Source: Chitinivibrionales bacterium (lineage in GTDB: Bacteria; Fibrobacterota; Chitinivibrionia; Chitinivibrionales; WJMI01). Taken from it: a stretch of 64,000 nucleotides of DNA. Of this stretch, positions 775-50,061 are shown in pieces. A model generated the notes under the pieces. It saw only the letters and a program-made list of their open reading frames with translations, had not been told where the DNA came from and made no database searches. The position numbers were made by a program, and so were the translations under genes. Position 1 is the stretch's first letter. The number at the start of each line of letters is the position of its first letter. The DNA lies in the NCBI GenBank assembly GCA_014728015.1, contig WJMI01000305.1:6192-70191 (forward strand), read 5' to 3'.

Positions 775-2295
775 TTGGGGCATGCCACAAATGCAGCAGA
801 GGCAGCGGAACGGCTTCGGGCGCGGCTTGGGCCGGGCAACGCGGGGCGTATTCCGACAGCTCGAGAACTCGCCAGGGAGTTCCATATTGCCGAGCGGACG
901 GCGCTGAAGGCACTCCGGCAGTTGCGCGACGAAGGCCTGCTTGAGTTTTCCCGCGGCAAGCGGCCGCGCGCGGCCGGGACACGCAGTGCGCACAAAGATA
1001 CCGCTGCCGGCCGGTTGTTCGAGGACCTGAAACAGGCCATTGTGAAAGGCGCGTACCGTGCCGGTCATATCATGCCTAAGCTTGACTACTTTGTCATCGG
1101 CGAGCATGCTTCGCGCAGCACGGTATCCGAAGCATTCAGAATGCTTGAGCGTGAAGCTCTGGCGCACAAGCGGGGGCGCCAGTGGGTGGTGGGGCCGGGA
1201 CCTGATCATAGGGCATCGCCGTTCGATGCGGCACAACCCAGAGGGGATCGGCCGGTTGTCGTGATGCTCGTTCCGGTACAGAAGGTATGGGAAGACCTGC
1301 TCAACGAGCACCTTCGGCCGTTTCTCTCCGAGTTTCTGGCGGAGCTCGGGCGCCGCCGCCTGGATTTCGTGCTGTGCCAGCGAGAGAACCCCTTGCCGCA
1401 CCGAAGCATTTTCCCGACGGGCCGGGATGAGACCGCGGCCTTGATTCGCGAGCTTGGCAGGCGGTATGCGGGAACGCTTATTGTGACCCAGCCATACAGA
1501 TTTCCCGATCTTGGGGACTGGATTGAGCAGCTTGCCGGGTTCGGACGTCCGGTGCTCTGGTTTGACTATGACGATTCCGGGCCGGCAATGGACCGCCGCG
1601 CCGTCGGCTTCGATCAGTTTTACAGGTGTTTCTGCAATGAATCCCGATGTGTGTCGCTGGCGCTTGAGTCGCTCTCCCGGTTCGGGCATGCCAGGGTGGC
1701 CGTGCCCGTATGCGAAACGCTCGCGCGCGACGAATGGTACACGCATCGGGTTGATCTTCTGCGCGAGATGAGCGGGCATCTCGAGAAGCCGGTTGACATC
1801 ATCACGGTCGATCAGGATGAGCCCGTGTGGGAGAGCATACGCACGCTTGAGGGCCACTATGTGACGTCACGGCGAATAGACGATCTGTACGTTGAGCGGC
1901 GGAAATCGAACGTAAAGCTCAGTGATGCGGCAATCGGCCGTCTCGTACGAGATGCTCTTCTCGAGGAGTTCCCTTCACTTGCATCGCTGCCAGAGCTGGA
2001 TGAGATAACCGCGGTGTTTGCCGCCAACCAGTCGCTTGCGGTCAATTATGTCATATGGTTCGATGCCGTGGGTGTCAGGATCCCGCGCGATATATCGCTT
2101 CTGGCGATAGACAATTACCTGCGCGCTGCCGTGTTTCCGGTTTCGACAATCGCGCAGAATTTCGAAGGGCTTGCCTACAGCATGTCCCACGTGTTCATCG
2201 GTGATATCCCGGTAAACGCGGACAAGCGGGGCAACATGCCGAGCGAGCCGGAATTCGTTGATCGCGGGTCGCTCGGCCGGCCGCCGCGCGGCTAG
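775..2295 (+). CDS. Transcriptional regulator, paralog 1: two tandem GntR-type winged-helix domains plus LacI/PBP1-like sensor domain
   Basis: ORF 694-2295. wHTH1: IPTARELAREFHIAERTALKALRQLRDEGLLEFSRGKRP. wHTH2: MPKLDYFVIGEHASRSTVSEAFRMLEREALAHKRGRQWVVG. C-terminal LacI-like signature: AANQSLAVNYVIWFDAVGVRIPRDISLLAIDNY. I prefer the in-frame TTG at 775, preceded by AAAGGAGG, over the TTG at 694; the start is uncertain. Confidence 0.75.
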   Translation: MGHATNAAEAAERLRARLGPGNAGRIPTARELAREFHIAERTALKALRQLRDEGLLEFSRGKRPRAAGTRSAHKDTAAGRLFEDLKQAIVKGAYRAGHIMPKLDYFVIGEHASRSTVSEAFRMLEREALAHKRGRQWVVGPGPDHRASPFDAAQPRGDRPVVVMLVPVQKVWEDLLNEHLRPFLSEFLAELGRRRLDFVLCQRENPLPHRSIFPTGRDETAALIRELGRRYAGTLIVTQPYRFPDLGDWIEQLAGFGRPVLWFDYDDSGPAMDRRAVGFDQFYRCFCNESRCVSLALESLSRFGHARVAVPVCETLARDEWYTHRVDLLREMSGHLEKPVDIITVDQDEPVWESIRTLEGHYVTSRRIDDLYVERRKSNVKLSDAAIGRLVRDALLEEFPSLASLPELDEITAVFAANQSLAVNYVIWFDAVGVRIPRDISLLAIDNYLRAAVFPVSTIAQNFEGLAYSMSHVFIGDIPVNADKRGNMPSEPEFVDRGSLGRPPRG

Positions 2296-5177
2296 GGCCA
2301 CACGATTCGCTTCACCACCTGCCGCGTGGCAGACCGTGCTCGGACCACGTAGGTGCCTGCGGCGATACCCCGGGAGTGCATATCCAGCGCCGCTGTCCCG
2401 GCACGCGGCAGGAGTTCCAAATCGAGCAACCTTTTTCCTGCAAGTGAATAGACGTTCACCCGCACGCGCCGCGTGCTGTTTGACTTCAGAACAAGCCTGC
2501 CGTTTACAACTCCTATCACGAGCCCTTCTGTGCCCGTCCGGGGGGCCGGTCCGAGCCCGTATCGGGAGGCGTTCTGGGTTTTGTCGTATCCTGCGGGCAG
2601 AGGATAGTCCAGCTCCACGCCTGTGGGATTGCCTGGCGTGGCATCGAGATCGGGCCAGACCAGCGTGCCCAGCTTCTCCTGGTCCTGTTTGTCAAAATTG
2701 TACACGCCATGTTCGTTTGCGTTGGCATCCAGCCACAGCGTGACCTTGCGCAGCTCCTCGCCGGTAAGCGTACAATCATGGTGGCTGCCGTCGACATTCT
2801 GATACAATGGGGAACAATAGGTCCCGAATTTGTAGGGCACCGTGCGCGAGCCGCCATACCAGGGGATCACGAAGTTGAACCGCTGGCTTCCGTGGTAGAA
2901 GAACAGGTACGACGACCGTTTGTCGGGCATGGTGCCGATGGGACAGGCGATTTCCTTTCCAGCCCAATATGAACTGGTGACATTTCCCCACTCTTCGTAG
3001 CCGTTGAGTGCATACCAGTAGTGGATCTCATGTCCGTTGTTGGGACCGCCGCCGGTCGAGCTGTGGCACGGATCGCATTTGGCCTCGAAAATAGGCTGGA
3101 CGGTCCGATAGAATGAGAGCGGCTCCTGGCTTCCGGGCTCCTTCTCCAGCGGTGACGGCGCTCTTCGGAAGGCCAGGGGGTTGGAGCCCATGGGCGGGGG
3201 CGCTTCCCATTTACTCTCGTGACACCCGACACAGGTCAACTGCTCGCCCGGGTGCACGTATGTAATCGATCGCATGGAGTGAATGGCAATGCCGTTTTCG
3301 TCGAGGAGTTGGAAATATATCGGCTTGCCGACGGGCGCCTCGCAGTACACGCTGCCGTCTTCCTCGACCGGTACGACGCCCATTGACATGCGGCACAAGC
3401 TTTCGTGGCCGGCGCCGGTGCGCGGGCTGTCCTTGCCGAATGTCGACTTCGCGAAGAACTGGAGAATCCGCATCCATTTCGCCCTGGCGCCTTCGGGAAG
3501 GGGCATGTCCGAGACATACACGTTCTGCACGGCAATGGTGGCGCGCTTGTGGTCGGCGTGATCGGCCCGATCGCCCTGAAACGTACGGGTGGGGATCGCG
3601 GGTGGTTTCTGGCGCGCCCGCAGCGGGATCGGATCGAGCGGTCTGGTGCCGAGCGAAATATCGATACGGACCTCGTTGCCGAACTTGTCGAGCAGTTCGA
3701 GGTCGTCGTAGTGATTGCACAGGTAGAATTCCTCGGAGAGCGGCCACAGGGTGGCCCAGCCCGGCCACCGGTCGCCGCCGAGCCATTCGGCCTCGGGGAA
3801 CCAGGCCCCGGTCATGCGCTTGACCTGCGACATGCGGTCGTCATCCTTGATTGTCACATCGATAAGTATCGGCGCGCCGTATGCCTGGCCGTGATGCGGG
3901 CCGGCGGTGGCCGTATACTTGCCGCTCGTGCCGGGTATCGCGCGGATGTTGAACTCGGCGAACGGACGCTCCTGCCTTCCGTCAATCCATATCTCGCCGT
4001 CGATATCGTTGTTGGCGGCGAACACGGTGTCGGTGGTGGTCCAGGGGTGGGGGTAGTTGCCGTGCGGCGCGCGCGGATCGCGGCCGTCGGGATAGCAGGT
4101 CCACATGTGGTGAGCAATGCAGTCTTCGCGGTCAACATAGTCCCATCGCGAATACACGATCATACCGTCATTGTCGACCGATGGGTGCCATTCGTTAGTT
4201 TCGTGGAAGCTCAAGCAGATGATATCAGAGCCGTCATCTTTCATGGAGTACAGCGAGTAGGTGGGGTACGGCTCGCTGTGGCACCGGCCGAACCCGCCGC
4301 GCCGCGTGGTATTGAACACGATGCGGCCATTGGGGAGAAAGCACGGGTCGAAGTCATCATACGGGCCGTCGGTGAGCATCATCAGATTGGATCCGTCAAT
4401 GCCGCACTTGAAGAGGTGATAACAGTCGTTTTCGTTCCACCCCGAGCCGCCGCCGCGCGCCCAGGCAAACACAATGGTCTCTCCGTCATACGAAAGATCC
4501 GGTGACAGAAATGCGCCGCCGTTGAGAGACTGGCCGGCCAGCCGTCCGTTCTGGACCGTGGCGCCTTCGAGGACATTGTCCACGCGGGGATTGTCGGCAA
4601 AAGCATTGCGAAGGATGTACAGCCCTCCGCCGCCCGTGCTCTTGTAGCCGTAATACTGCGGGCACATGTGGCCGCACTCGGTCGCGGTTGACACAAAAAG
4701 AAGATCGTCGAAATCGAGAAGCGGATTGGAAACGGCGATCCGGCGCCGCAGGGCGCAGGCCTCCGCGAACAGGTTCCGTTCGACTGCGGTGCCTGTTTTG
4801 GCGAGGCCGAGCCGGTCTCGCGCGGCGCGCAATTCGGCCAGGCGACTACGAAAGGTATCCGCCCTCTTGCGCAGGCCGTCTGTTGACTGAAGGTGTCTGA
4901 GCAGTGCATCGGTGCGCCTCAAGACGACATCAACCGGAGTTCGGTCCGTCTCATGAAGCAGGGCGTGGGGGTCGAGAATGTCCCGTTCGACTTTCCATCG
5001 ATGGGGCGACTTCCCGAGCTTGTGGAGACTTTCGAGCCGTCCGGAAAGCTCAGCATACTCGGTATCCCACCGGGCCCGCACCGACTTGCTGTAGTTGGTT
5101 GATGTGCGTGACCCGGCGAATGGCAGAGATGCGGCTATTATGGTCAGATAGAGCGATATGACAACAGCCAATCGCAT
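2292..5177 (-). CDS. HzsA-related / PD40-like beta-propeller protein with two CxxCH haem c motifs and a T9SS C-terminal domain
   Basis: 961-aa ORF with signal peptide. Propeller motifs: FLSPDLSYDGETIVF, DFDPCFLPNGRIVF, HETNEWHPSVDNDGMIVYSRWDY. Haem motifs: LTCVGCHESKWE and a PSCyt1-like VQPIFEAKCDPCHSS. Tail: VYSLAGKRLLDLEL...GIAAGTYVVRARSATRQVVKRIVWP. Paralog of 54211-56934. SD: AAAAGGGGGAATGCGC. Confidence 0.65.
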   Translation of the reverse strand: MRLAVVISLYLTIIAASLPFAGSRTSTNYSKSVRARWDTEYAELSGRLESLHKLGKSPHRWKVERDILDPHALLHETDRTPVDVVLRRTDALLRHLQSTDGLRKRADTFRSRLAELRAARDRLGLAKTGTAVERNLFAEACALRRRIAVSNPLLDFDDLLFVSTATECGHMCPQYYGYKSTGGGGLYILRNAFADNPRVDNVLEGATVQNGRLAGQSLNGGAFLSPDLSYDGETIVFAWARGGGSGWNENDCYHLFKCGIDGSNLMMLTDGPYDDFDPCFLPNGRIVFNTTRRGGFGRCHSEPYPTYSLYSMKDDGSDIICLSFHETNEWHPSVDNDGMIVYSRWDYVDREDCIAHHMWTCYPDGRDPRAPHGNYPHPWTTTDTVFAANNDIDGEIWIDGRQERPFAEFNIRAIPGTSGKYTATAGPHHGQAYGAPILIDVTIKDDDRMSQVKRMTGAWFPEAEWLGGDRWPGWATLWPLSEEFYLCNHYDDLELLDKFGNEVRIDISLGTRPLDPIPLRARQKPPAIPTRTFQGDRADHADHKRATIAVQNVYVSDMPLPEGARAKWMRILQFFAKSTFGKDSPRTGAGHESLCRMSMGVVPVEEDGSVYCEAPVGKPIYFQLLDENGIAIHSMRSITYVHPGEQLTCVGCHESKWEAPPPMGSNPLAFRRAPSPLEKEPGSQEPLSFYRTVQPIFEAKCDPCHSSTGGGPNNGHEIHYWYALNGYEEWGNVTSSYWAGKEIACPIGTMPDKRSSYLFFYHGSQRFNFVIPWYGGSRTVPYKFGTYCSPLYQNVDGSHHDCTLTGEELRKVTLWLDANANEHGVYNFDKQDQEKLGTLVWPDLDATPGNPTGVELDYPLPAGYDKTQNASRYGLGPAPRTGTEGLVIGVVNGRLVLKSNSTRRVRVNVYSLAGKRLLDLELLPRAGTAALDMHSRGIAAGTYVVRARSATRQVVKRIVWP

Positions 5178-5258
5178 GGCGCATTCCCCCTTTTTGCCAG
5201 GTTATGGAACGGATCTCGGGGTCGCGGCATCTTTCTTGCGGCATGCCCGGGACCATTC

Positions 5259-5268
5259 AATATAGGGG
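5259..5268 (-). promoter_or_regulatory. CCCCTATATT promoter-like (-10-like) motif upstream of 2292-5177
   Basis: Exact 10-mer on the minus strand. Its 3' end is 81 nt upstream of the ATG at 5177. One of four exact copies, all in promoter position. Confidence 0.4.
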
Positions 5269-5355
5269 CATAGGCTGGTGAAGCGCCCCTTGTTCAGAGC
5301 GGAAAACGGCGTTCACTGGACAGAGAGGACAGTACTGGTGCCAGAAGTCAGAGAC

Positions 5356-5411
5356 CAGAGGCCAGAGATCTGTCCTTTCGAATAGTCGCGCTCTTTGACC
5401 TCTGGCCTCTG
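5356..5411 (-). terminator. Terminator-like hairpin after the 5423-7711 gene (no clear U-tract)
   Basis: CAGAGGCCAGAGATC (5356-5370) pairs with GACCTCTGGCCTCTG (5397-5411): a 15-bp stem with one mismatch and a 26-nt loop. It starts 12 nt past the stop at 5423 in minus-strand reading. Confidence 0.35.
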
Positions 5412-5422
5412 AGCTCCGCCTT

Positions 5423-7711
5423 CTACCGGCAGATCATTACACGCCGGCAAACGGTATATGCACCTGCGGCGACTGACACCAGGTAGTACCCGGTAGGCAC
5501 CATGGTACGATTCACGAGGTACCGCCGGGAGCCGCTCCCGCGGACACGGTGCACAAGCCGTCCATTCAGGGAGAACAGGTCGACCCGGTGTGCCCCTTCG
5601 GCAGCTACGTTGACCAGCGCGCGTCCGGCCACTGCGCTCACGTGAAGCGGCATGGCGGTTCGCAGAAGGACCGGTGACAGGGCCACGGCATTGCCGCTCG
5701 AAGGACCTTCGTAGAATTCTATTTCGGCGACATTGAGATAGCCGCACTCGCCGCCGGCATTGCTGTTGTACCGGACATAGGCGGCTTCAAGCGGATCGTC
5801 GATGGTAACCGTGGTCATCTCGCCGTCGGCAGGCACGGATTCGATCGTATAGATGCTGGTCCAGTCGGTGCCGTTGGCCGAGACCTCGAATGTCCTTCCG
5901 ACCATGCGCTCACCGAAGCCGTCGCGTGGGCAGAACGAGATTTCAACAATGGTCTTGGGCTGGTCGAACCGGAACCCCGCCCAGAGCTCGTCGGCTTCAT
6001 GGCAATCGGGGTAGGTGGTGATGTCGCCGTCGAATGCGGCCCAGGGTCCTTCGCAGAAGTCGAGCGGTTCGCCTTCGGAGATAAAATGGCCGGTAGCCTT
6101 GCGCTTTGCTACAATCTCAATCTGCGTGGATGCGCTTTTGGCCGTGCCGTCCATACTGGCATCCGCGGTGACCGTAACCGTTCCCTCGGTGTTTCCCGCG
6201 GTAAACATTCCGTCGTTATCCACTTCGCCGTCAGCGCCGGTTGCCGACCAGGTGAACGCGGGCTGCGTTGGCATGGCAAGGAAATACTGGTCGCGCGCCG
6301 TTGCCCACAACTGAAGTGTCTCGCCGTAAAGGAGCGTGCGGCCGGCCGGAGTGACAGTCATCGAGGTAAACACCGGGGGCTCGGGGTCGCCGGTTTCCCA
6401 GCTTGACGATATAGAACCGGAGTGCGTGCTGTTGAGCTCCACGTTGAAATCGCTCTGGATGCTTGCCAGGCCGGTGCGACTGTTGGGACCCCAGGTAACC
6501 GTGGGCTCGCTGCCCTCCCAGGTGTTATAGTCCCAATCGAAGCTTCGCGTGCTTGCCATGCTGGTTGTCCAGGTCTCGGCTCCCAGGGACGTTCGAATCT
6601 CGCCATTCTGGTAGACGTTATGCTTCAGTGTCAGGTTCTCGATATCGCTGTTGAGCGCGGGTTCGCCGTCACGGACAGGCGCCTCGCGCTCCATGTCCCG
6701 AAGCTCGAACGATCCGTTGATCAGCGTATGCATAATAGTGACATTCTTGCTTTCGCACACCGCAATCTCGGAGCCGTCATTGTCGTGGGAGTAACAGTAT
6801 TCGAGTGTCAGCGGGCCGGTGGGATTGACTTCCCAGAACACCCCTGAGCCTTCCCAGTTGTAGGCCATGCCCTTGTTGTTGCGAAACTCGCTGTTGCGTA
6901 CGACCACGTTGCGGTTGTCCCAGTCGAACCACAGGCCGGGCCCGTGGTTGTCGTAGGCCTGGTGGTTTTCTATGAGGAGCGGGCCTTCATAGTTATTGCA
7001 CCATTTGCCGCCGCCGCCGGAGAACCCGCCCGGTACGTGGTATTTTCCGCCGATATTGTGGAAAGAGCCTTCCTTTTCCGGAAAGGGATTGTAGTCCCAG
7101 CCGCAGTTGTTGTTGCGGGAGATACAGTTCCGCACGACCACATCGCGGCATTTTCCGCCACCGATACCGCCGGCGAAGTTGTACTCGGTGATAACATCTT
7201 CGACAAGGCAATGATCGACGTCCTCGAGCACAATGCCGTCCCAGTGCGATTCCTTGGTGAGGATATTGCGCACGGTCCACCCGCGGCTTCCGCCGGCAAT
7301 GCGTACTTGCGAGTTGTTGAAAAAGCACGCGCCGCGGCGAAATGTCATGTCTTCGAGGGTAACATAGCTTGCGCCCCATGATGCGAACAGGTGACGCATG
7401 GTGGTATCGAATTCGCCGTCGATAATGACCCCGGCGCGGCTTTCGCCCTTGATCACGATCGGATTGTCGGCAGTACCCGAATTGGCCGACCAGAAGATAA
7501 TGGTCTGGTTGTAGGTGCCGGTACGAACCGTGATGACATCCCCGGGCTTGGCCAGGTCCACCGCTTTCTGGATGGTAGCGAATGGCGCGCCGGAGCTGCC
7601 GTCGTTGGTGTCGTCGCCGGATGTTGCTATGAAATAGTCGGCCGCGAATGTGCCGGCAGCGAGAAATACGCATGCCAGCGCGGCATGGATAGTTGCGCGA
7701 AGCGTTCTCAT
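5423..7711 (-). CDS. Secreted beta-helix protein type 1 with Big_2, F5/8 type C (discoidin) and T9SS C-terminal domains
   Basis: 762 aa. Signal peptide, then ADYFIATSGDDTNDGSSGAPFATIQKAVDLAKPGDVITVRTGTYNQ and beta-helix repeats (NCISRNNNCGW, HQAYDNHGPGLWFDWDN). Big_2-like: VTPAGRTLLYGETLQLWATARDQ... Discoidin-like: AAFDGDITTY...VSANGTDWTSIY...AEIEFY. Tail: LFSLNGRLVHRV...TGYYLVSVAAGAYTVCRRVMICR. Confidence 0.75.
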   Translation of the reverse strand: MRTLRATIHAALACVFLAAGTFAADYFIATSGDDTNDGSSGAPFATIQKAVDLAKPGDVITVRTGTYNQTIIFWSANSGTADNPIVIKGESRAGVIIDGEFDTTMRHLFASWGASYVTLEDMTFRRGACFFNNSQVRIAGGSRGWTVRNILTKESHWDGIVLEDVDHCLVEDVITEYNFAGGIGGGKCRDVVVRNCISRNNNCGWDYNPFPEKEGSFHNIGGKYHVPGGFSGGGGKWCNNYEGPLLIENHQAYDNHGPGLWFDWDNRNVVVRNSEFRNNKGMAYNWEGSGVFWEVNPTGPLTLEYCYSHDNDGSEIAVCESKNVTIMHTLINGSFELRDMEREAPVRDGEPALNSDIENLTLKHNVYQNGEIRTSLGAETWTTSMASTRSFDWDYNTWEGSEPTVTWGPNSRTGLASIQSDFNVELNSTHSGSISSSWETGDPEPPVFTSMTVTPAGRTLLYGETLQLWATARDQYFLAMPTQPAFTWSATGADGEVDNDGMFTAGNTEGTVTVTADASMDGTAKSASTQIEIVAKRKATGHFISEGEPLDFCEGPWAAFDGDITTYPDCHEADELWAGFRFDQPKTIVEISFCPRDGFGERMVGRTFEVSANGTDWTSIYTIESVPADGEMTTVTIDDPLEAAYVRYNSNAGGECGYLNVAEIEFYEGPSSGNAVALSPVLLRTAMPLHVSAVAGRALVNVAAEGAHRVDLFSLNGRLVHRVRGSGSRRYLVNRTMVPTGYYLVSVAAGAYTVCRRVMICR

Positions 7712-7784
7712 GGATCCCTCCCCCCCTTAGGGAATGATTTTGCGGAACTGATGCGGCTGAATTGCTCTCCTGCCCTGTTCGGTA

Positions 7785-7794
7785 AATATAGGGG
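7785..7794 (-). promoter_or_regulatory. CCCCTATATT promoter-like motif upstream of 5423-7711
   Basis: Exact 10-mer on the minus strand, 73 nt upstream of the ATG at 7711. Confidence 0.4.
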
Positions 7795-8036
7795 CCATCG
7801 CCCGCTATTCTTGTTTAAATGGTTCTAGAGTGCCATGGGTGTTATAGAATAGGTGCGGAGTCAGAATGAGGAACGCTGAGACAAGAGAATAGTCAAACCG
7901 TCACTGATAGCAGAAATCTGACAAAAATACATCGTTTTCTGTAGTTTTCTCGTGCCATCCAGTCTTAGATTACTATCGTGTTACGCTTTGCGGATCCTGA
8001 GAAGTCTTTGCCGTACATGCGCGACAGTGAAGGGCG

Positions 8037-8063
8037 GACTCAGGTCCACAACCATCCTGAGTC
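8037..8063 (-). terminator. Hairpin downstream of 8085-9335 (terminator-like, no U-tract)
   Basis: GACTCAGG (8037-8044) and CCTGAGTC (8056-8063) form an 8-bp stem with an 11-nt loop, 22 nt past the stop. Confidence 0.25.
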
Positions 8064-8084
8064 AATAGCTACCTGACACGTAGT

Positions 8085-9335
8085 TCAGTGAATGGTCCCC
8101 ACGGCTCTGGCGGCCAAATTCTCCTCCGCTCGATAGCGATATATGTGAACTGCGCTCGGCATGCGGGTGCCGGGATGTAAGGAGTAGAAACAGGCTCTAT
8201 CGGTCCCACGTGTTATCAGCCTTCCTGTCGCGTCGAACACTCCAAAGGAGCCGTTCGGCCCAAGGGGAAGCCGGTGCTGTGCTTGTGATGCTGCTACTGG
8301 AGTTTTGTACGGTTCTCCCTCTCCTGGGGGCTGCGTCAGAAGGCCATCCAGGATGTCCTTCATTTCGCTGGTCGATTTGAGCTGTTTCAAATACGCATGT
8401 TGTTTGTCGGGCGAAGCCTGCCATGCGTTGGAGCCGTCTGCGGCAATCTCGTTGCACCCGTTCGTTTCCGCAGCCCAGTAGTCGGCAAGGCCCCGCACGG
8501 CATACAATACGGCGGTCAGATCCCAGCTTTCCCGGTTTTTGCCCTCACCGCACAGGTAGATATCATACGCCCTGCGTATCGGATTGTCATACGGTGTTTC
8601 TTCTGCCAGGGTCGAACCAGTCAGGATAGCGCTGCCGATTTCGTACCCGGAAAAGGTGACCGGTCGGGGCCAATTATCAACAGCGAACTTGGTGGCCGGC
8701 CCCATATTCAATGCCCAGAAGTTCCACTCACGGCCCTCGGGATAGGCACCTCCCATGCACGACCATGCCTTGACTTTCTTTGCAACAAGGTCCCTGCCGC
8801 ACAGATCGCTGTATTCGTCGGGTGGCGACTGCAGAAGGTGGGCAATGTTTATCAGGTAACCGACCGTGACAATGGTGACGCTGGTGTCGGGTCGTGACGC
8901 AAGTATCTGACGGTATAGGTTTGTCGACAACGGCAATTCATCGCTGGTAGCCACGTCGTGGGGATAGTTGTCCGCGAGATACTCGGCATACGAGCCGCAG
9001 GCCATGACCTTCTGTGACTTGGGAAGCGAAAACGTCCGGTCCTCAAAGATGTCGCGATGAGCCACGCCAATGGGAAGGTCGGGACGGCTGTAAAACGTGT
9101 TTACCACGTCCACCGCTGGCCCGCTCAGATAGTCGGGCACGCTTAACATCACTGCAAGGATATTGCATTCGCCGTTGTCCGCGAGGGCATGAAGCACTGC
9201 AAGTGCACCGCAGTCGTCCACGTCGCCGCCAAAGTCCGTATCGAGAATGATATTCGGCACTGCGCAGGCGGCAAATGCCAAAACCACGATCAGCCTTGCT
9301 GTGTTGAGAATAGTCGCAACGAGTCCACAGTTCAT
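8085..9335 (-). CDS. Secreted inosine-uridine nucleoside hydrolase (IUNH)-fold protein with T9SS-like tail
   Basis: N-terminal Asp cluster ILDTDFGGDVDDCGALAVLHALADNGECNILAVM (the D.D...DD Ca-binding signature of the IUNH fold) follows a signal peptide, MNCGLVATILNTARLIVVLAFAACA. Start moved to the ATG at 9335, preceded by AGGAAGGGGGGATCCT. Paralog of 31014-32210. Confidence 0.7.
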   Translation of the reverse strand: MNCGLVATILNTARLIVVLAFAACAVPNIILDTDFGGDVDDCGALAVLHALADNGECNILAVMLSVPDYLSGPAVDVVNTFYSRPDLPIGVAHRDIFEDRTFSLPKSQKVMACGSYAEYLADNYPHDVATSDELPLSTNLYRQILASRPDTSVTIVTVGYLINIAHLLQSPPDEYSDLCGRDLVAKKVKAWSCMGGAYPEGREWNFWALNMGPATKFAVDNWPRPVTFSGYEIGSAILTGSTLAEETPYDNPIRRAYDIYLCGEGKNRESWDLTAVLYAVRGLADYWAAETNGCNEIAADGSNAWQASPDKQHAYLKQLKSTSEMKDILDGLLTQPPGEGEPYKTPVAASQAQHRLPLGPNGSFGVFDATGRLITRGTDRACFYSLHPGTRMPSAVHIYRYRAEENLAARAVGTIH

Positions 9336-9469
9336 AGGATCCCCCCTTCCTGTTGGTCTGCTGTTGCCGGGAAGTGTACCCCAAATCGTCTGTCCAGACA
9401 ACCTACCGAGCGGACCATGTTGTTGCACTTTTCGGACAATCTGCCGCAAGAATGGGTATATTAGTTTGC

Positions 9470-10252: not shown

Positions 10253-10417
10253 GATTGGGCGACCATTGGGATGGAGTCAGGCTCGCGCGGCGGCGCTCTT
10301 GCTGCTGGCTCAATCCTCAGCCCGGCGGCCGACATCCGCATTCGTATGAGGCTTGTATTCCGCCGCTCGATGAATTCCGCAACCTTTGTCTGCGCCCCGC
10401 ACTTCGCTGCTTCATTG

Positions 10418-10449: not shown

Positions 10450-10524
10450 GTCATCGTAATGTGAGAAAGACCAAGACTGACTGTATGCAAAATGTTTTCG
10501 AACCAGTTTCGCTATCTCCGGGCC

Positions 10525-35953: not shown

Positions 35954-35957
35954 GGAT

Positions 35958-42114: not shown

Positions 42115-42352
42115 GTATTTCCCTTTTGAGCTGGTTTCCGAGATTTGAAAGGGACGCATACCGGCGCCCGGCTCTTGTCTCTTACTGCCTTTCGCAAGGC
42201 TCCTGCGTGCAATATACAGTAAATAGAACGGAATAGTAGCACAATAATCAGAAGCAGGCCATCTATTTCTATAACTTCGCTCATGGGGAGGTTCAGGGCA
42301 TTCTGAATCAGCCGGTTCTTACAGGTCGATTAATACCGAAGGAGTCTCTTCC

Positions 42353-43540
42353 ATGTCTTCACAAACCTTCAATACCGCGTACTTCAAAGCCGCACTGTGC
42401 GCAGCGGCCCTTCTGGCGGCCTTGTTCGCAGTGCCATCTCACGGGGAGTGGGGCTCAATATCTGTCAGCAAGGATGCTTCGGACAATTTTCAGGTGGTGC
42501 TCGAGAACAGCAAATTCAAATGCACCTACGGCACGGTCACCAAACCCTACACCGACATCAAGGAAACCACAATCAGGGAATTCTCGGTGAAAGCCGCGGG
42601 CGGAGCAGACCAGGTAGGCGCTCCCGGGTATATGGATGCACAGGTCATGTCCATGGAAAAGGACCGCGGGGTGTGTATCTACGCGGATGTTGTCAGGGAT
42701 GGCGCTGACACAAAGACCGTACGCATGGTATGGGACAACGGCCAGGTGTTTCAGGATATCACTATGACCAAGGACTCTCCTGTTCTCAAGATGGACTACT
42801 ATAACTACGGGATTACGATCCGCGATTTTGTCATGCCCGGCGGAAACGAGTGGGGCGAGTATTCGATTTACGGCGGCGGATCGTACACGCGCAAGGAAGG
42901 CATTCTGACCCTGTCCGGATATCAGTATCCCGCATCGTACTATCGTGATGCCGACGGCACCAATGACCCGGCCGACGGCGGCGCTCTCAGCTACAACGGA
43001 TGGTTCATCATCGGCGTGTACGCCGACAACGGCCAGGGGTACGTGCGAGTGATGCCGGTGAAACATATCAGTGTGATAAAGGCGCTCTACGGCCGCGGCT
43101 GGGAGTGGGCCCCGCACTACGGCACCAAAGGCGACCCGGTTGCGTTTACCGGCTACCTTGGGATCGTTTCCGGCGGCGGCGGCGAGATCCAGTCACTTGG
43201 CAAGTCTGCTGCCGACAATGCGCCGGGTATGGAGCCGGCAACCGTACCCCCGCTTCCGATAACGCCTACTATTGGAAGTACCATGCTCCAGAAGAAACGC
43301 GCGCCAGCCATGCGCATACAGCGTACCGGCGGGTATGTCGCCGTATCTGTCGCCGCTCTGTCAAAGCATCAGCTTCGGGTATTCACCCCGAACGGCAGAA
43401 CGGTCTACGCGGCACATGCACAGGGGACCACGACGTATCGGGTACCGGTACGGACGATGGCAAACGGGCTGTATGTATTCCAGGTCAAAACAGAAGCGAA
43501 GGTGTTCAACAAGACCCATGTCATGCTTCACTACAGATAG
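42353..43540 (+). CDS. Secreted protein of unknown function (family U, copy 2) with T9SS C-terminal domain
   Basis: 395 aa, collinear with 24810-26015. Tail: LRVFTPNGRTVYAAH...ANGLYVFQVKTEAKVFNKTHVM. SD: GAAGGAG. Confidence 0.5.
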   Translation: MSSQTFNTAYFKAALCAAALLAALFAVPSHGEWGSISVSKDASDNFQVVLENSKFKCTYGTVTKPYTDIKETTIREFSVKAAGGADQVGAPGYMDAQVMSMEKDRGVCIYADVVRDGADTKTVRMVWDNGQVFQDITMTKDSPVLKMDYYNYGITIRDFVMPGGNEWGEYSIYGGGSYTRKEGILTLSGYQYPASYYRDADGTNDPADGGALSYNGWFIIGVYADNGQGYVRVMPVKHISVIKALYGRGWEWAPHYGTKGDPVAFTGYLGIVSGGGGEIQSLGKSAADNAPGMEPATVPPLPITPTIGSTMLQKKRAPAMRIQRTGGYVAVSVAALSKHQLRVFTPNGRTVYAAHAQGTTTYRVPVRTMANGLYVFQVKTEAKVFNKTHVMLHYR

Positions 43541-43561
43541 AAACCATAAGAGAGTTTTATC

Positions 43562-45481
43562 ATGAAATCGAAAAGCATACTTACAGCCGTTGTTGCGGCG
43601 CTTTGTCTGTGCTCCACCGCGCTGGCGGAGGAAATATTCACCGACTTCAACCGCAACGGGTACCGCGCATACGATGGTCTTCAGGTCGGGGACTGGCTCT
43701 ACGTTGACCTGAGCTACGGGGTTACCGATATGTGGAGCGGGTATGCCCCCGACAATTACATGTGCATCAAGACATATTTCTCCGACAAGTTTTACTGGGA
43801 CAAGGATTTTCTGATCTTCACCGTGCACCGCGATGTGACCGTGCTGATCGGCTGGCCGCAGGCCAGCAAGCACATGCCGGACTGGCTCCAGGACGGGTGG
43901 GTGGACAACGGCAAGCGAGGGGCTACAGGCTCATATACGCTCACATTCTACGAGAAGGAGTTCTCATCGGGTGATCGCGTGCAGCTCGGGGGCAATGAAG
44001 AGGCGTCGTTTATCATGTATACGATTCAGGTCGAGACCGGGCCGCACGATCCCGCGCCGTGGGTGCAGGAGAACGTGGTGCCCGACACATGGCTCGACGG
44101 CCTTCCGGAGCCGGTGCTGTCCGAGCATACGGGCTGGATAGATTTCTACTACTTCGCATGGGACATGGCCGACACCAAGAAGGTGCACCGTCCTCTGGGA
44201 TGGACTTTCGACGAGGCGCATGGGAGCGACGTGTCGTACCTGTGGGACTATGTCTGGATGACCTATTTCACCAAGTATGTGCAGGATGCCCATCCGCTCA
44301 TCACTGATTTCATGCTCGGTATCGACCAGATGTATGCCGACATGTATCCCGATGGATACGCGCCGTTCAAGTGGGGCTACCGCCGCGATCCGTTCTGGAC
44401 CCAGGCGCCCATTTTCCCCATGGCCGAATGGCAGTGCTACATTCACACGGCCGATACCGATCGTGTCAAACGGGTCCTTCCGTACCTCGAGAAGAACTTC
44501 TGGAATGTAAAGCGGTTCTGGGCAACGTACTGGGGGCCGCAGTATTTCGATGCCATGATCGGCAACGGCATGGACAATCGTCCCAACGGTGCGCGCATCA
44601 TCGATCTCACGGGGCAGCAGGCAATCAATGCCCTGATAATTTCGCGTCTTGCCGAGGCTGCCGGCGATACCGACCGAGAGTACAAGTTCAACAAGGAATA
44701 CAATTTCATCAAGGATGTTATCAACAATAAGATGTGGCATGACGGTGATAAGTTCTACACCGACATGAAGAACCGTACCGGCGACGAGCTGAAATCGGGT
44801 GACTGGACACTGGCATCCTACTGGCCGCTCATTGCTGAAGTTGCGCCGCAGGATCGTGTCGACCATATGGTGGCGCACCTCAACGATCCGGACAATTTCA
44901 AAACCGCGCATCGCCCGCCCTCAACCGGCAAGAAGAGCTGGGCCTACGATCCCGGAGGTAAGTACTGGCAGGGGAGTGTGTGGGTACCGACGGCCACCAT
45001 GGTGATCCACGGCCTGACCGCGTGCGGCGAGCATGATCTCGCGCGCGAGATCGCGGTCAATCACCACTACTACACCTACGAGACCTACCTGCAGACAGGC
45101 ACGATTCTCGAGAACTACTGGCAGGAAGGCGTGGGCAAGCCCACGGCCGGAAGCTCGATGACCGACTTCGTCGGCTGGAGCGGCATTACGCCGACCGGCA
45201 CGCTTATCGAATACGTGATCGGTATAAAGGTCAATGCACCCGAGAATACTGTCACCTGGCGCCTTCGGCTGACAGAACAGAACGGCATGCGAAACCTGAA
45301 ATGGGGTCCCGGCTTTGCGCATGTAATGGATCTGGTTGCTGACGCCAGAAGCAGTGAGAGCGACCCTGTGACTGTTAGAGCAAACAGCAATCATGCATTC
45401 AAACTTGTAGTTGATGCCGGCTTCAAAACAAAGACGTTTGATGTGGCAGCGGCCAATGATCAGGTATTCGTGGTTCAATAG
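43562..45481 (+). CDS. GH63-like (alpha/alpha)6-barrel glycoside hydrolase, no T9SS tail (copy 3)
   Basis: Collinear with 26125-28134: LPEPVLSEHTGWIDFYYFAWDMADTKKV, IDLTGQQAINALIISRL, KYWQGSVWVPTATMVIHGL, LENYWQ, FVGWSGITPTGTLIE. Confidence 0.7.
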   Translation: MKSKSILTAVVAALCLCSTALAEEIFTDFNRNGYRAYDGLQVGDWLYVDLSYGVTDMWSGYAPDNYMCIKTYFSDKFYWDKDFLIFTVHRDVTVLIGWPQASKHMPDWLQDGWVDNGKRGATGSYTLTFYEKEFSSGDRVQLGGNEEASFIMYTIQVETGPHDPAPWVQENVVPDTWLDGLPEPVLSEHTGWIDFYYFAWDMADTKKVHRPLGWTFDEAHGSDVSYLWDYVWMTYFTKYVQDAHPLITDFMLGIDQMYADMYPDGYAPFKWGYRRDPFWTQAPIFPMAEWQCYIHTADTDRVKRVLPYLEKNFWNVKRFWATYWGPQYFDAMIGNGMDNRPNGARIIDLTGQQAINALIISRLAEAAGDTDREYKFNKEYNFIKDVINNKMWHDGDKFYTDMKNRTGDELKSGDWTLASYWPLIAEVAPQDRVDHMVAHLNDPDNFKTAHRPPSTGKKSWAYDPGGKYWQGSVWVPTATMVIHGLTACGEHDLAREIAVNHHYYTYETYLQTGTILENYWQEGVGKPTAGSSMTDFVGWSGITPTGTLIEYVIGIKVNAPENTVTWRLRLTEQNGMRNLKWGPGFAHVMDLVADARSSESDPVTVRANSNHAFKLVVDAGFKTKTFDVAAANDQVFVVQ

Positions 45482-45737
45482 TCCTATGGACGATGAAGCT
45501 CGAAATTCAGAACATGATAGGGGCACGTGTGCGGATTGCGGATCGGGGAGCCGCACACGGGCCCTTCCATGTCTTTGAGCGGCAGCGACTTGTGTCCTAA
45601 TTGGCCGAGCAACAACAGCCACAACAACCTTCTGGAGACGTTCTACACAGATGTGGACCGATATATTGCTTTGAGAGGCATTTCACAATCTGCCTGCCGT
45701 CTTCTTGCGGCAAAATTATTGACCGGGGGGAACTCGT

Positions 45738-48386
45738 ATGAGACTGAATCTTTCCATACTGCTGACCGCTTTTGCCACAGTATCGACACTGTTGGCCGCC
45801 GAAGTTGTCATCAATCCGGGCGACGACTGGGGTGCGGCCATCTCCAACAACCCCGCCGGCACGGTATTCATTATCAAGGCCGGTATCCATCCTGACCCGG
45901 AAATCAGCGATGCCAAAAACGGCATGCAGTTCATCGGAGAGGACGGTGCCATTGCGCAGGGCGACACCAGCGGCATGTATTTCGCCACCGGCTACGGACC
46001 CAACGGCAAGATTGAAGATGTTGTTATCAAGAACATCGAGATTCGCGGCTATGGTCTTGACAGAGACGGCAACGTTGGGTATTGCGACGGCGGCCCGCTT
46101 TCGGTGCATGACAGCAAGAACTGGCTTCTCGAAGAACTCGAGGTCCATCACTGCGGCGGAACCGGGATTACCACCGGTGAAGGCACCATCGTCAGGAACT
46201 GCTGGGTGCATCATAATTTTCAGCAGGGATTCGGCGGCAAGTTCAGCGGCGCCACTGTCGAGGGGTGCGAGAACGGGTACAACAATGTTGTCATCGACGG
46301 CGTCGACAGCAACTACTGCGCGTGGGAGCATTCAGCCGGCGGCAGCAAGTGGGCCATCTGTTCCACCCTGGTGGTCAAGAATTGCTGGACTCACCATAAC
46401 TACGGGCCCGGCTGGTGGACCGATATCTCGAACGAGGACATCACCTATACCGGCTGTCTGGTCGAAGAGAACGTTTCCATGGGGATATTCCATGAAATAA
46501 GCGGCAACGCCACTATCAACTGTAATATCTCGCGCAACAACGGTATCGGTCCCAACTCAGGATCCAATTTTCAACTTCACGTAGTGTCTTCGGGTCCCAC
46601 GGAGTTATGGGGCAATATCATGGATGTGCATGCATCGGGCGGCGCCGGATACCAGGTGACCGAGAACGGCCGCGAGTACCTGGCCCAGGATGTCGATTTT
46701 CATCACAATATCATTGTATATCGCCATACCACCGGCCCGGCAGTCGGCATGGGCTGCCAGATAGGCGGCGGGTGCGATGCCGTGTACAACGACAACGCGC
46801 AAAACATCGATTTTCACGACAACACCTACTACGTTCCCGATGCCAGCGCCGAGCTCTGGCAGTGGGACGTGGGCGACTGCGTGGACTTCACTACCTTCAA
46901 GACATATCACAGTTTCGGGCGCGGCAGCGAGGTGATCGAAACCGGCGATTTTCCGGATATCGAGGATCTCGATTGCCCGACCGGGTGCGAGGACGTGCTC
47001 GCGCCTGAGATTATCCTGAGGAACCGGCGCATGCATTTCGAGATCGGCCAGGGCGGCAGCGCATCGCCGCAGGTCGTTTCGGTCGGCAACATGACCATGG
47101 GCACGCTTGCCGATGTGGAAACCGATATCTCGTACGTGAACGGCAGCGGATGGCTCAATGTCGCGCGAAGCGGCTCGGGAAACACCCAGAAACTGACTAA
47201 TACGATCGACGTTTCCGGCGTGAGCGCGGGAGACTACAGCGCCAAGGTGCGCGTGTCGGCATCGAATGCCGACTACGTTCCGTGGTACTGGGTGCATATG
47301 AAGGTGACCGGCGAATCACCGGCACTTACCTCGTTTGACATCGTTCCGTCAAACGCGGTCTGTTCTCCCGAACAGAGCATCAAATTCATCGCCACGGCCC
47401 TTGACCAGTGGGACAATCCCCTGGCCGATCAGCCGTCGGATATCTCATGGTCGGTGACCGGCGACGGGTCCGTATCGAACGGCACGTATACGGCGGGCAC
47501 GGAAATCGGCGCCCATACCCTGACCGTTTCATCGGGAGGTGTATCCACCGAGCAGCCGGTGCGCGTGCTTAAGGCCGACCCGCTGGACATGTCGGAGAAT
47601 ATCAAGGACTTTCTGGTGCTGTGCGCGCCGGGCGGCTCGCCCAAGCTGAATGTGAGCAATTACGCGGGATCGAGCACGCATGTCATGGACGATGAGCACC
47701 TCCTGACACCTGCGCCGGGCGACAAGGTGACGGTTGGCGGCACGGACTACACCTGGACAATCATGCACGACGATGACGGTCAGTGGCATGATGATGCCGG
47801 CGGCGGCGAGTGGATAGCGTACTTCGCGATAACGGTCTTGAGCACAAAGGACCAGTGGGTCAGGTATAATGTCAGGCACGCGGGCGGCATGCGGATCTAC
47901 TCGAACGGCCTGAAGGTGTACGGGTATAATTCGTGGGACAATCGCCGGGCTGTCGCGAGCGATCCCGCGCTGCTCGAGCGGGGCGCCAACCAGGTCATAT
48001 TCAAGCTGGCAAGCAATACGTACCCCCGGTTCTCCGCGCACATTGATGATGCCCAATCCGGCGGGCTTCTCACCGATCTGTACTACACGCTCGACGATGC
48101 CGCGGGCGGCGACCTGACAATCAGCGGGCCGATGCTCAGCCGCGCGATGCGTCCCCTGGGCATCAGTGTCCGGCGGAGCGCCGGCAGGTATGTTCTCGAT
48201 GTCGCGGGCGTGGAAGGGTCTCACGAAGTGCGCGTGCTGAGTCTCAATGGACGGACCGTGTTCGTGCGACGCGGCATGGGTGAAGCGGCCTACATGATCC
48301 CGCGGAGCAAAATGGCATCCAGCGTATACGTGGTGTCGGTCAGGGCCGGCGAAAAGGTCCTGCGCAAGCGGTTCATCGGTTACTGA
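45738..48386 (+). CDS. Secreted beta-helix protein type 2 with Big_2, beta-sandwich and T9SS C-terminal domains (copy 2)
   Basis: Collinear with 28199-30943: FIGEDGAIAQGD, NIEIRGY, KNCWTHHNYGPGWWTDISNEDITYTGCLVEENVSMGIFHEISGNATINCNISRNNG. Tail: VLSLNGRTVFVRR...SSVYVVSVRAGEKVLRKRFIGY. SD: GGGGGGAACTCGT. Confidence 0.7.
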   Translation: MRLNLSILLTAFATVSTLLAAEVVINPGDDWGAAISNNPAGTVFIIKAGIHPDPEISDAKNGMQFIGEDGAIAQGDTSGMYFATGYGPNGKIEDVVIKNIEIRGYGLDRDGNVGYCDGGPLSVHDSKNWLLEELEVHHCGGTGITTGEGTIVRNCWVHHNFQQGFGGKFSGATVEGCENGYNNVVIDGVDSNYCAWEHSAGGSKWAICSTLVVKNCWTHHNYGPGWWTDISNEDITYTGCLVEENVSMGIFHEISGNATINCNISRNNGIGPNSGSNFQLHVVSSGPTELWGNIMDVHASGGAGYQVTENGREYLAQDVDFHHNIIVYRHTTGPAVGMGCQIGGGCDAVYNDNAQNIDFHDNTYYVPDASAELWQWDVGDCVDFTTFKTYHSFGRGSEVIETGDFPDIEDLDCPTGCEDVLAPEIILRNRRMHFEIGQGGSASPQVVSVGNMTMGTLADVETDISYVNGSGWLNVARSGSGNTQKLTNTIDVSGVSAGDYSAKVRVSASNADYVPWYWVHMKVTGESPALTSFDIVPSNAVCSPEQSIKFIATALDQWDNPLADQPSDISWSVTGDGSVSNGTYTAGTEIGAHTLTVSSGGVSTEQPVRVLKADPLDMSENIKDFLVLCAPGGSPKLNVSNYAGSSTHVMDDEHLLTPAPGDKVTVGGTDYTWTIMHDDDGQWHDDAGGGEWIAYFAITVLSTKDQWVRYNVRHAGGMRIYSNGLKVYGYNSWDNRRAVASDPALLERGANQVIFKLASNTYPRFSAHIDDAQSGGLLTDLYYTLDDAAGGDLTISGPMLSRAMRPLGISVRRSAGRYVLDVAGVEGSHEVRVLSLNGRTVFVRRGMGEAAYMIPRSKMASSVYVVSVRAGEKVLRKRFIGY

Positions 48387-48501: not shown

Positions 48502-50061
48502 TTACAAGCGTGCTACACCGGCAATGGAGCCGCGGTCTATCAATTCCGGAACCGTGGCGATATTCCCCCGCCGGTCCGCCCGGATCGGGATGTCGCCCAC
48601 AAAAATGTGCGCCGCCTTATAGGCAATATCCTCGAGCTTCTGATCCACGGTAGTGACCGGCTCCCTGCTGAAATAGAGGTAGTTGTCGAACGCGACAAGC
48701 GACAGGTCCTTCGGTACTGCAATGCCCACATTTTTCAGCCAGTAGAGGTAGTTCACCGCAGCCCACTGGTTGGCGGCGATGAGAGCAGTCGCGCGGTTTG
48801 GTTTCAACAGGGGTGTCAGCGAGGGAACCGTGCGGGCGAGTTCCTGAGACAGGAGTTTTTCCCGGCGCGCGCGTGTTGCTTTCGGGTGTGCCGCCCGAAT
48901 AGATTCCCGAATCGAATCCACGTGATTGAACATGGGGTTGATGCCCATGTAGTCGTAGAGAAGGTTGTATTCGGGTTCTCTGCCGATAAGCCACAGGCGC
49001 TCGTTGTGTTCCCACACGGTCAAATCAAGGCGTGCCTGGCGGCACAGGTCGGCAATCAGCTCGCGGCGGTTTATCAACCAGTCTTCCCGGGCAAACCTGT
49101 TGGGAACAATCAACGCGGCGCTCCGGTGCCCTCGGTCCGCCAATGCTGATACTGCGAGTCTCACCAAGGCGCGCTCTTCACTGTAGCACCGGAAGAACGC
49201 CCGGCGGCCGACTGTCCTGCGGTCGAGATGCGGCAGGCGGTTTTCGATGTCGAGAAATACCACCGGCCTGTCGAACTGGCCCAGCCACGAGACCCAGTCA
49301 CGCATGTCGTCCAAATCCTTTTGGTGGACCACGACAAACGTACCCCGGTATCGATCGCCCAGCTTCTGGATTGTTTTCAGGATGTCGGCCCGTCCCGCCG
49401 CGAAGAAATCTCGGCTGGTGGCCCGGCGATCCGCATGCACCACAGTCGGTGCCTGAGCGATTTCCTTCTGCACCACCAGGTACTCGTGACCGAATCGTTT
49501 GAGCTCGGTACAGAAGGTGGAGATCATGAGATTGGAGTGCATGGTAAACAGGTCACGCCAGAAATCATATCCCTGCACCAGAATGAGAACGACCGGCTTT
49601 TCTTCTCGGGCCTTGTATCCAGGAGCGGGCGCCGCGGGCTGGGGACCCACAGCCCATCTTTTGCCCTGCCGGTGAATAAGACCTTCTGAAGAGAGAATCG
49701 ACATGGCCCGGCTCACAGTGCTGCCGGAGACATGATCGGTCAGGATGTAGTGGAGCTGCTTGGGGAGCGTGTCGCCCGCCCGAAGAATGCCATCGTCAAT
49801 TTTGTCCCTGACATTTCTGGCAAACCGTCCTGCCGAAGTATGATCGGAGAAGCTTTCACCAGGGATATCGAGCCGTACAGGCCTCCGCCTGTTGCGCAGT
49901 TTCACCAGGCCGCGACTCGACAGGATCCGCAGAGCCGCAACGGCGGTGTTCTTGGCCACTTCGGATTCGCGGACGATTTCACGCACAGATGGCACAGGCA
50001 AACCGGGATTGGCGCGGAGTGTTTCTTCGATTGTGGCGGCAATACGCTCTGCAAGCGGCAC
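48502..50061 (-). CDS. Transcriptional regulator, paralog 4: tandem GntR-type wHTH x2 plus LacI/PBP1-like sensor
   Basis: wHTH1: VPSVREIVRESEVAKNTAVAALRILSSRGLVKLRNRR. wHTH2: LPKQLHYILTDHVSGSTVSRAMSILSSEGLIHRQGKRWAVG. C-terminus: AANQWAAVNYLYWLKNVGIAVPKDLSLVAFDNY. GTG start preceded by AGGAGA. Confidence 0.75.
   Translation of the reverse strand: MPLAERIAATIEETLRANPGLPVPSVREIVRESEVAKNTAVAALRILSSRGLVKLRNRRRPVRLDIPGESFSDHTSAGRFARNVRDKIDDGILRAGDTLPKQLHYILTDHVSGSTVSRAMSILSSEGLIHRQGKRWAVGPQPAAPAPGYKAREEKPVVLILVQGYDFWRDLFTMHSNLMISTFCTELKRFGHEYLVVQKEIAQAPTVVHADRRATSRDFFAAGRADILKTIQKLGDRYRGTFVVVHQKDLDDMRDWVSWLGQFDRPVVFLDIENRLPHLDRRTVGRRAFFRCYSEERALVRLAVSALADRGHRSAALIVPNRFAREDWLINRRELIADLCRQARLDLTVWEHNERLWLIGREPEYNLLYDYMGINPMFNHVDSIRESIRAAHPKATRARREKLLSQELARTVPSLTPLLKPNRATALIAANQWAAVNYLYWLKNVGIAVPKDLSLVAFDNYLYFSREPVTTVDQKLEDIAYKAAHIFVGDIPIRADRRGNIATVPELIDRGSIAGVARL

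Follow-up and report, generated by a model that had tools for sequence, protein, structure and literature searches.

Four paralogous regulators with tandem GntR-type winged helices and a LacI-type sensor domain in a Chitinivibrionales bacterium

The four regulator genes

GntR and LacI regulators are dimers with one DNA-binding head per chain. The subject here is a set of four paralogous genes, R1 to R4, whose products each carry two GntR-type heads ahead of a LacI-type sensor domain, and which all lie within one stretch of 64,000 nucleotides (the window; GC ~0.59) on contig WJMI01000305.1 of a Chitinivibrionales bacterium (Fibrobacterota; GenBank assembly GCA_014728015.1). In the list that follows, unit 1 and unit 2 are the first and second winged helix-turn-helix (wHTH) of each protein and PBP1 stands for a periplasmic-binding-protein type 1 fold.

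775-2295, plus strand: R1, 506 aa; unit 1 wHTH 775-972, linker 973-1002, unit 2 wHTH 1003-1194, LacI-type PBP1 domain 1255-2265
14595-16073, plus strand: R2, 492 aa; unit 1 14595-14783, unit 2 14835-15026, PBP1 domain 15063-16049
40588-42114, minus strand: R3, 508 aa (523 aa with a start at 42159, as in database protein P0002); unit 1 41920-42114, unit 2 41683-41874, PBP1 domain 40621-41625
48502-50061, minus strand: R4, 519 aa; unit 1 49873-50061, linker 49837-49872, unit 2 49645-49836, PBP1 domain 48532-49593

All four open reading frames (ORFs) had been picked out in an earlier, sequence-only reading of the window as collinear and roughly 490-520 aa long, and all four are present as such. 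The start codons given there, which in R1 is TTG, are preceded by sequences resembling a ribosome-binding site (RBS), namely AGGAGG (R1), GGGAG (R2), AAAGGGAAA (R3) and CAGGAGAG (R4), and the family profile described below begins at these same, shorter starts. The longest-ORF starts, at 694 for R1 and 42159 for R3, were not adopted; the extra 27 and 15 residues have no counterpart in the family.

In a collinear alignment over ~500 residues R1 is 25% identical to R2 and 36% identical to both R3 and R4, with R2 being the most divergent of the four. The sequence motifs that had been proposed to unite them hold only in part. The motif K(R/I)G(K/R).W(V/R)VG at the end of unit 2 is found in R1 (KRGRQWVVG) and R3 (KRGKHWVVG) but not exactly in R2 (KIGRYYRVG, with Y in place of W) or R4 (RQGKRWAVG). 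Similarly, R2 alone among the four is without the AANQ...DNY segment, and the C-terminal GDIP....GN motif is exact only in R3 and R4.

Two winged helices and a sensor domain

The architecture of these proteins is two GntR-type wHTH units followed by a LacI-type PBP1 domain of ~350 aa, which is to say the AraR-type arrangement with a duplicated DNA-binding domain. This had been suggested from the sequence, and Pfam, profile matches to the PDB, hhalign and an AlphaFold model now concur on it. With Pfam, PF00392 (GntR) is matched twice in each of R1, R2 and R4 and once, by unit 2, in R3, and PF13377 (Peripla_BP_3) matches the C-terminus of all four proteins with 44-76 bits. The E-values for GntR and Peripla_BP_3 are, respectively, 7.5e-14 and 2.8e-11 in R1, 1.8e-18 and 3.2e-12 in R2, and 1e-08 (unit 2 only) and 5.5e-19 in R3. 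The whole-protein GntR scores of 51.6, 66.4, 35.1 and 51.1 bits (R1 to R4) all exceed the PF00392 cut-off of 27, placing the four proteins within the GntR family. Unit 1 of R3, which lies below the reach of Pfam, scores 67.6 bits against a unit-1 hidden Markov model (HMM) made from 37 other family members; indeed, HMMs made without the window sequences nonetheless score every window unit. No LacI-type helix-turn-helix with its hinge helix (PF00356) is found in the four proteins at E<=1, and the NCBIfam models give them domain-level matches only, far under every equivalog cut-off.

How firmly can the two units be assigned to the GntR fold? Searched against the PDB, a profile of the four paralogs matches the GntR heads of DasR, NanR and PdhR over positions 10-66, matches independently the GntR heads 6sbs, 3tqn and YydK over positions 83-144, and matches LacI/PurR/AraR effector domains over positions ~395-496 (9nt3, 9e-13; PurR, 2.5e-09; the AraR effector domain 3tb6, 5.6e-05). 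Profiles of the separate units, each built from 41 sequences (the unit-1 profile, A7, includes the four window proteins), extend this. That of unit 1 matches 6sbs (1.8e-10), YvoA/NagR (2.1e-10), DasR (~1e-08) and the AraR N-terminal domain 4egy (3.8e-08), and that of unit 2 matches 3tqn (2.8e-08), YvoA (2.2e-07) and the AraR N-terminal domain (5.8e-04). Aligned with each other by hhalign, the 41-sequence profiles of the two units give a probability of 97.3 with an E-value of 2e-11, and the four paralogs by themselves give a probability of 96.4.

The predicted structure agrees with these assignments. An AlphaFold model of R4 built on a 114-sequence family alignment has a predicted local distance difference test score (pLDDT) of 91.9 and a predicted template modelling score (pTM) of 0.85, superseding a run on the four paralogs only that gave a pLDDT of 68. 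Both units fold in the model as GntR-type wHTH domains with the order alpha1-alpha2-alpha3-beta-beta, unit 1 having helices at 2-17, 26-33 and 37-49 and strands at 53-56 and 59-63, and unit 2 having helices at 76-89, 102-109 and 113-125 and strands at 129-132 and 135-138. By sequence, profile and predicted fold, both units rather than one are therefore genuine GntR-type winged helices. What follows unit 2 is an alternating beta/alpha domain of the PBP fold, for which the top Foldseek matches in the PDB are the effector domains of LacI, PurR and RbsR (E 1e-13 to 1e-10, best 1.8e-13). No solved chain among the Foldseek PDB matches spans the entire architecture.

The LacI-type domain of R4 also contains a poorly conserved helical segment at residues ~353-424 (window ~48790-49005, minus strand), with modelled helices at 376-391, 397-411 and 413-419. 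Across the family this segment has a median length of 60 residues and a range of 44-84 (alignment A4), and it apparently has no counterpart in solved LacI-family domains, as the Foldseek alignments run to ~370 columns for targets that are ~265 residues long. A role in oligomerisation or in the binding of a partner is conceivable.

Family size and distribution

The four proteins belong to a sizeable and apparently lineage-associated expansion of paralogs. Of 1.84 billion cluster representatives (50% identity level) searched by profile with HMMER, 19,770 match at E<=1e-3; lowering the threshold to E<=1e-10 leaves 2,373, and at E<=1e-30 there remain 575 clusters. Among the best 150 matches almost all are ~490-540 aa long and align in a single collinear stretch over profile positions 1-499, and both wHTH units appear as separate matches in 139 of the 154 proteins retrieved, with the exceptions being mostly short. 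The retrieved proteins come from JGI, ENA, Logan and NCBI sources; all the named sources are metagenome-assembled genomes (MAGs) of Chitinivibrionales/Fibrobacterota, with several members per genome. Their public labels are generic, and include 'GntR family transcriptional regulator', 'YhcF (GntR family)', 'LacI/PurR family', 'FadR family' and 'hypothetical protein'.

When GTDB species genomes were scanned with the motif [FL]xRLGYLAAH, which is specific to a subfamily and does not occur in the window proteins, 11 loci came up, all in Chitinivibrionales/Fibrobacterota MAGs, with five coming from one MAG and four from another. The restriction of this result to Chitinivibrionales may be biased by the subfamily motif and is not proof of a lineage restriction. 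Full-length family members are present in nine of the loci (L001-L009). The other two, L010 (6001-6258) and L011 (6001-6361), hold C-terminal fragments only, possibly pseudogenes. Also within L010, at 3158-4216 on the minus strand of its Chitinivibrionales MAG, is a canonical AraR-like protein of 352 aa with a single GntR domain and a Peripla_BP_3 domain, which possibly represents the ancestral, one-headed state in this lineage.

An exact-sequence look-up of contigs for R4 (P0001) gave no match. Searches of a word index were uninformative: with R4 as the query only R4 itself was recovered, and with the N-terminal double-wHTH profile seven proteins were recovered, none of them a known family member. 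The latter search did bring up P0156 (L014:36-710), the complete product of a 224-aa gene adjoining an APH-type kinase gene, which has three PF00392 units and no effector domain. Its relatives (P0162-P0178) include triple forms of ~222-242 aa and double forms of 148 aa annotated in Streptomyces; the triple forms of ~224 aa are metagenomic. These stand-alone tandem-GntR proteins are a separate family, likewise uncharacterised and generically annotated. A duplicated GntR wHTH within one polypeptide is, then, real in the window proteins, as the sequence-only reading had it, but it is not unique to them.

That reading had also described the overall architecture as unfamiliar. This stands in so far as no characterised subfamily or paper with the arrangement was found, and full-text literature searches for tandem, double or duplicated GntR domains, or for GntR regulators in Chitinivibrionia, gave no paper describing either tandem type; it does not stand in so far as a large family already exists in public databases under generic names. 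The family is an uncharacterised, apparently Chitinivibrionales-associated group of double-headed AraR-like proteins that departs from AraR in having two heads where AraR has a single one.

Genomic neighbourhood

Two of the four regulators had been taken to be divergent from an adjacent gene, but in fact all four are, with intergenic gaps of 134, 243, 238 and 86 bp (R1 to R4). R1 diverges from a DUF1565-like gene at 1-640 (minus strand) that bears a signal peptide, R2 from a gene at 12837-14351 (minus strand), R3 from a gene set at 42353-48386 (plus strand) and R4 from a gene set at 50148-56934 (plus strand). The products of the neighbouring genes include right-handed beta-helix proteins, MGH1/GH63-like hydrolases, HZS_alpha-domain proteins, IU_nuc_hydro-like proteins and a melibiase, and many are without a Pfam match. 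In other MAGs and metagenome contigs, relatives of the regulators adjoin genes for a SASA esterase, GH38, GH2-malectin, beta-helix and GH16 proteins; the closest relative of R2, P0021, is encoded upstream of a GH16 gene in locus L012. The presence of these neighbours of carbohydrate-active type in other loci supports a link between the regulators and carbohydrate metabolism, and module-specific sugar sensing is plausible from this context.

The idea of one regulator per enzyme module is correct only as an approximation. R1 is convergent with a minus-strand module at 2292-14351, the 5' end of which faces R2. In addition, a long plus-strand enzyme module contains, at 35958-36998 on the minus strand, a gene for a regulator with an AraC helix-turn-helix and a GyrI-like/Cass2 effector domain, and the double-wHTH proteins are consequently not the sole regulators in the region.

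A number of other features of these modules can be recorded. The alpha-galactosidase (melibiase) is encoded by two overlapping plus-strand ORFs, 34842-35357 and 35305-35883, matching the N-terminal part of Melibiase_2 and Melibiase_C, and this split suggests a frameshift, a pseudogene or a sequencing error. Two paralogous proteins of 920-960 aa, encoded at 2292-5177 (minus strand) and 54175-56934 (plus strand) within glycan-degradation modules, have as their sole Pfam match the middle domain of hydrazine synthase alpha (HZS_alpha, ~1e-19 to 5e-20). Finally, many long ORFs of the enzyme modules, of 256-665 aa, match nothing in Pfam at E<=1e-5; they occur on the minus strand (9461-10231, 10643-12193 and 12837-14351) and on the plus strand (18643-26015, 36801-38471 and 42353-43540), and are candidates for undescribed families of carbohydrate-active enzymes.

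DNA-binding potential and candidate operators

Are both units competent to bind DNA? Averaged over the 114-member family alignment, unit 1 has a net charge of +6.1 and unit 2 one of +5.5, the charge being positive in 99% of members, and the PBP domain is approximately neutral. The recognition helix, helix alpha2 and the wings retain conserved basic residues (K42, K/R59-60, K101, K131 and K/R134), and positions of the specificity type in alpha3 are variable in both units, namely 38 and 41 in unit 1 and 113, 114, 117 and 118 in unit 2. The linkers have median lengths of 13 residues between the units and 18 residues before the sensor domain. Contact of both units with DNA would give a LacI-like dimer with four heads, and the strong positive charge of both units means that such a dimer probably does present four DNA-reading heads.

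The DNA upstream of the four genes contains the following elements.

50076-50136: candidate composite operator for R4 and the 50148 operon, ~62-bp imperfect dyad of putative regulatory function
695-739: candidate composite operator ahead of R1, spanning ~45 bp when the outer arms are included, of putative regulatory function
14352-14594: divergent intergenic region of R2, with the direct repeat TCTGATCTCTG present twice
42115-42352: divergent intergenic region of R3 (to the 42353 operon), with a weak inverted repeat at 42182-42222 that is 73% complementary

The R4 element has inner arms TAGTA-N8-TACTA around the self-complementary sequence ATTATAAT, from which the -10-like hexamer TATAAT arises on both strands, and outer arms GTACAGAAGGA and TCCTTCTGCAC. 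Aligned with its own reverse complement it scores 40, a value reached by 1 of 300 shuffles. Upstream of R1 an inner dyad, AGATAT-N5-ATATCT, lies within 699-726 (28 bp) and is flanked by perfect outer arms of 9 nt, TGCATTTCT and AGAAATGCA, giving a score of 32 that is again reached by 1 of 300 shuffles. Both elements are consistent with a dimer that has four heads. In the R2 region the two copies of TCTGATCTCTG, a perfect 11-nt direct repeat, start at 14546 and 14567 (14546-14577) and are thus 21 bp apart, just upstream of the RBS.

A further sequence, TAGTAC, is over-represented, with 22 copies in the window against 7.1 expected and none of 100 shuffles reaching 22. Examples are at 18633, 24615, 32328-32335, 40502, 50077 and 50107; intergenic DNA, ~10% of the window, holds seven copies, and several copies upstream of genes form cTATAGTAC or the palindrome TAGTACTA. 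The hexamer may be a promoter element of the -10 type or a shared operator element. It was not adopted as a shared operator core, given that several intergenic copies sit within TATAGT/TATAAT-like -10 contexts.

Proposed mode of action and alternatives

The interpretation favoured here, to which a probability of roughly 55% is given, is that the four genes encode paralogous AraR-like, local, sugar-responsive regulators with an extra N-terminal wHTH, acting as dimers that place four DNA-reading heads on a composite operator and are released by a ligand. The PBP1 domains would dimerise as in LacI and AraR, and with two positively charged wHTH units in each chain, connected through ~13 residues of flexible linker, the dimer would have four heads. 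Their target would be a long, composite operator within the divergent promoter region that the regulator has in common with the neighbouring glycan-degrading genes. Binding of a sugar or oligosaccharide derived from the substrate in the PBP1 cleft would lower the affinity for DNA, and the lowered affinity would lead to derepression both of the module and of the regulator gene. The analysis establishes the domain make-up and the fold, the homology of both units to GntR wHTH domains, the family with its size and source organisms, and its association in genomes with genes for carbohydrate-active enzymes; that the proteins dimerise, bind DNA with both units, repress instead of activating and have a sugar or oligosaccharide as their ligand is what we infer.

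Several observations weigh against such a scheme, and they concern unit 2, the operators and the constancy of the two-headed form. Across the paralogs the mean column identity is 51% in unit 2 and 35% in unit 1, so that unit 2 is the more conserved of the two; it contains near-invariant, family-specific residues (K101, H130, W136 and G139), and it is less canonical when compared with solved GntR domains. This pattern of conservation would fit a generic or structural role for unit 2 at least as well as a role in specificity. With respect to the operators, no dyad above shuffles is found upstream of R2 or R3, and eight of nine regulator-upstream regions in other loci have no comparable long dyad, being unremarkable or showing terminator-like hairpins that follow a co-directional upstream gene. 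The upstream DNA of the R2-relative loci L012 and L013 has no conserved footprint and lacks the R2 repeat. Since this survey of dyads is mostly negative, the idea of a four-site operator draws on R4 and R1 only. Lastly, five family representatives of 430-464 aa start at unit 2 and have a single GntR domain; these may be true single-head forms or the result of mis-called starts.

The same features of unit 2 bear on the strongest alternative, according to which only one wHTH, probably unit 1, reads DNA specifically, while unit 2 is probably a structural element, a non-specific clamp or a module for oligomerisation or allosteric coupling. Greater conservation of unit 2 is what would be expected of such a module among paralogs that should have different targets, and its near-invariant residues in the LPK and HK.G..W.VG motifs, its weaker match to the AraR N-terminal domain (5.8e-04 as against 3.8e-08 for unit 1) and the pTM of 0.85, which suggests a compact and confidently packed multidomain model, point the same way. 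On the other hand unit 2 is still strongly positive, its wing residues are basic, its alpha3 positions 113, 114, 117 and 118 vary as they would in a specificity helix, and the long composite dyads of R4 and R1 seem to hold more than a pair of half-sites. An arrangement with one reading head per chain is on this balance rather unlikely, if still a serious contender.

A second alternative takes the two units of one chain to be an intramolecular pseudo-dimer on a short operator, with the PBP dimer bridging two operators by looping in the manner of the LacI tetramer or cooperative AraR. The homology of the two units and the short, flexible linker (median 13 aa, pLDDT ~71) would suit this, as would the identical 11-nt repeats upstream of R2, and the stand-alone double and triple GntR proteins, which have no dimerising effector domain, indicate that tandem units can be a self-contained DNA-binding module. 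However, no pairs of separated operators were identified in the regions surveyed, the elements of R4 and R1 are single continuous dyads rather than two distant sites, and 13 residues of linker possibly do not suffice for two GntR heads to pair head to head in the canonical way, all of which make this a decidedly improbable arrangement. That the double-wHTH form is an artefact, produced by gene calls run together, by a frameshift that joined two genes or by misassembly of one MAG, for which the metagenomic origin of the window might speak, is effectively refuted by the four independent copies in the window, each a single uninterrupted ORF with an RBS, by the occurrence of both units across proteins from four separate sources, and by the full-length copies in nine further loci.

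Returning to the four-headed dimer, a more specific and more tentative proposal can be attached to it, which is that the PBP1 dimer may use four winged helices of two kinds to read an operator of ~45-60 bp containing two classes of half-site, these being the inner and outer arms at 50076-50136 and 695-739. Such a mode of recognition is undescribed for GntR or LacI-type regulators. If it were true, two reading heads per chain would give a larger specificity space, and dozens of paralogous sugar regulators could coexist in a Chitinivibrionales genome without cross-talk.

Significance

A two-headed family numbering hundreds of clusters would be a natural testing ground for the effect of additional DNA-reading domains on operator length, on specificity and on the insulation of paralogs from one another, and the double-headed architecture would mildly surprise a transcription-factor specialist. 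In uncultured Chitinivibrionales (Fibrobacterota) the family is, in addition, a marker of the modules for glycan utilisation. As these modules are rich in enzymes without a Pfam match, assignments of regulator, operator and ligand could help to identify their substrates. For annotation, a dedicated family model is easily built from alignment A4.

Comparison with known systems

Two winged-helix units in one chain are also a feature of SarS, SarU and SarY of Staphylococcus aureus, where they mimic a SarA/SarR dimer and so provide a precedent for wHTH units that pair within one chain as a pseudo-dimer. Those proteins differ from the present ones in that their winged helices are of a different family (MarR/SarA) and there is no sensor domain. 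The stand-alone tandem-GntR proteins are alike in having two or three consecutive PF00392 domains per polypeptide, but they consist of repeated PF00392 only (148-242 aa), come from an unrelated lineage and have units that resemble the Pfam consensus much more closely (whole-protein scores of 95-173 bits versus 35-66 bits for the window proteins), whereas the window proteins carry the ~350-aa PBP1 domain.

The LacI/GalR repressors, such as LacI, PurR, RbsR and CelR, have the same PBP1 fold, with the motif of the C-terminal subdomain recognisable by sequence. Unlike them, the window proteins are without the LacI-type headpiece, and binding to DNA would be through the GntR-type winged helices.

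The closest parallel is with AraR of Bacillus subtilis, which belongs to the AraR subfamily of the GntR family. It is a chimera of a GntR N-terminal and a GalR/LacI C-terminal domain that represses sugar-utilisation genes from palindromic operators, and its base contacts are made by R41, where alpha3 begins, and by the wing residue Q61 (PMC1950556, PMC3592433). The control it exerts over carbohydrate-utilisation genes is local, and its operators have cores of the GTAC type (PMC3592433). The window proteins share with it the combination of an N-terminal GntR wHTH and an effector domain homologous to that of LacI/GalR (PMC1950556), the latter being recognised through PF13377, Foldseek and 3tb6, and both of the AraR structures, 4egy for the N-terminal domain and 3tb6 for the effector domain, are matched by the window profiles. 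They differ from AraR in a sequence similarity that remains remote, in an additional helical segment of ~60 residues within the PBP domain and in having two wHTH units in a chain of 490-520 aa where AraR has one.

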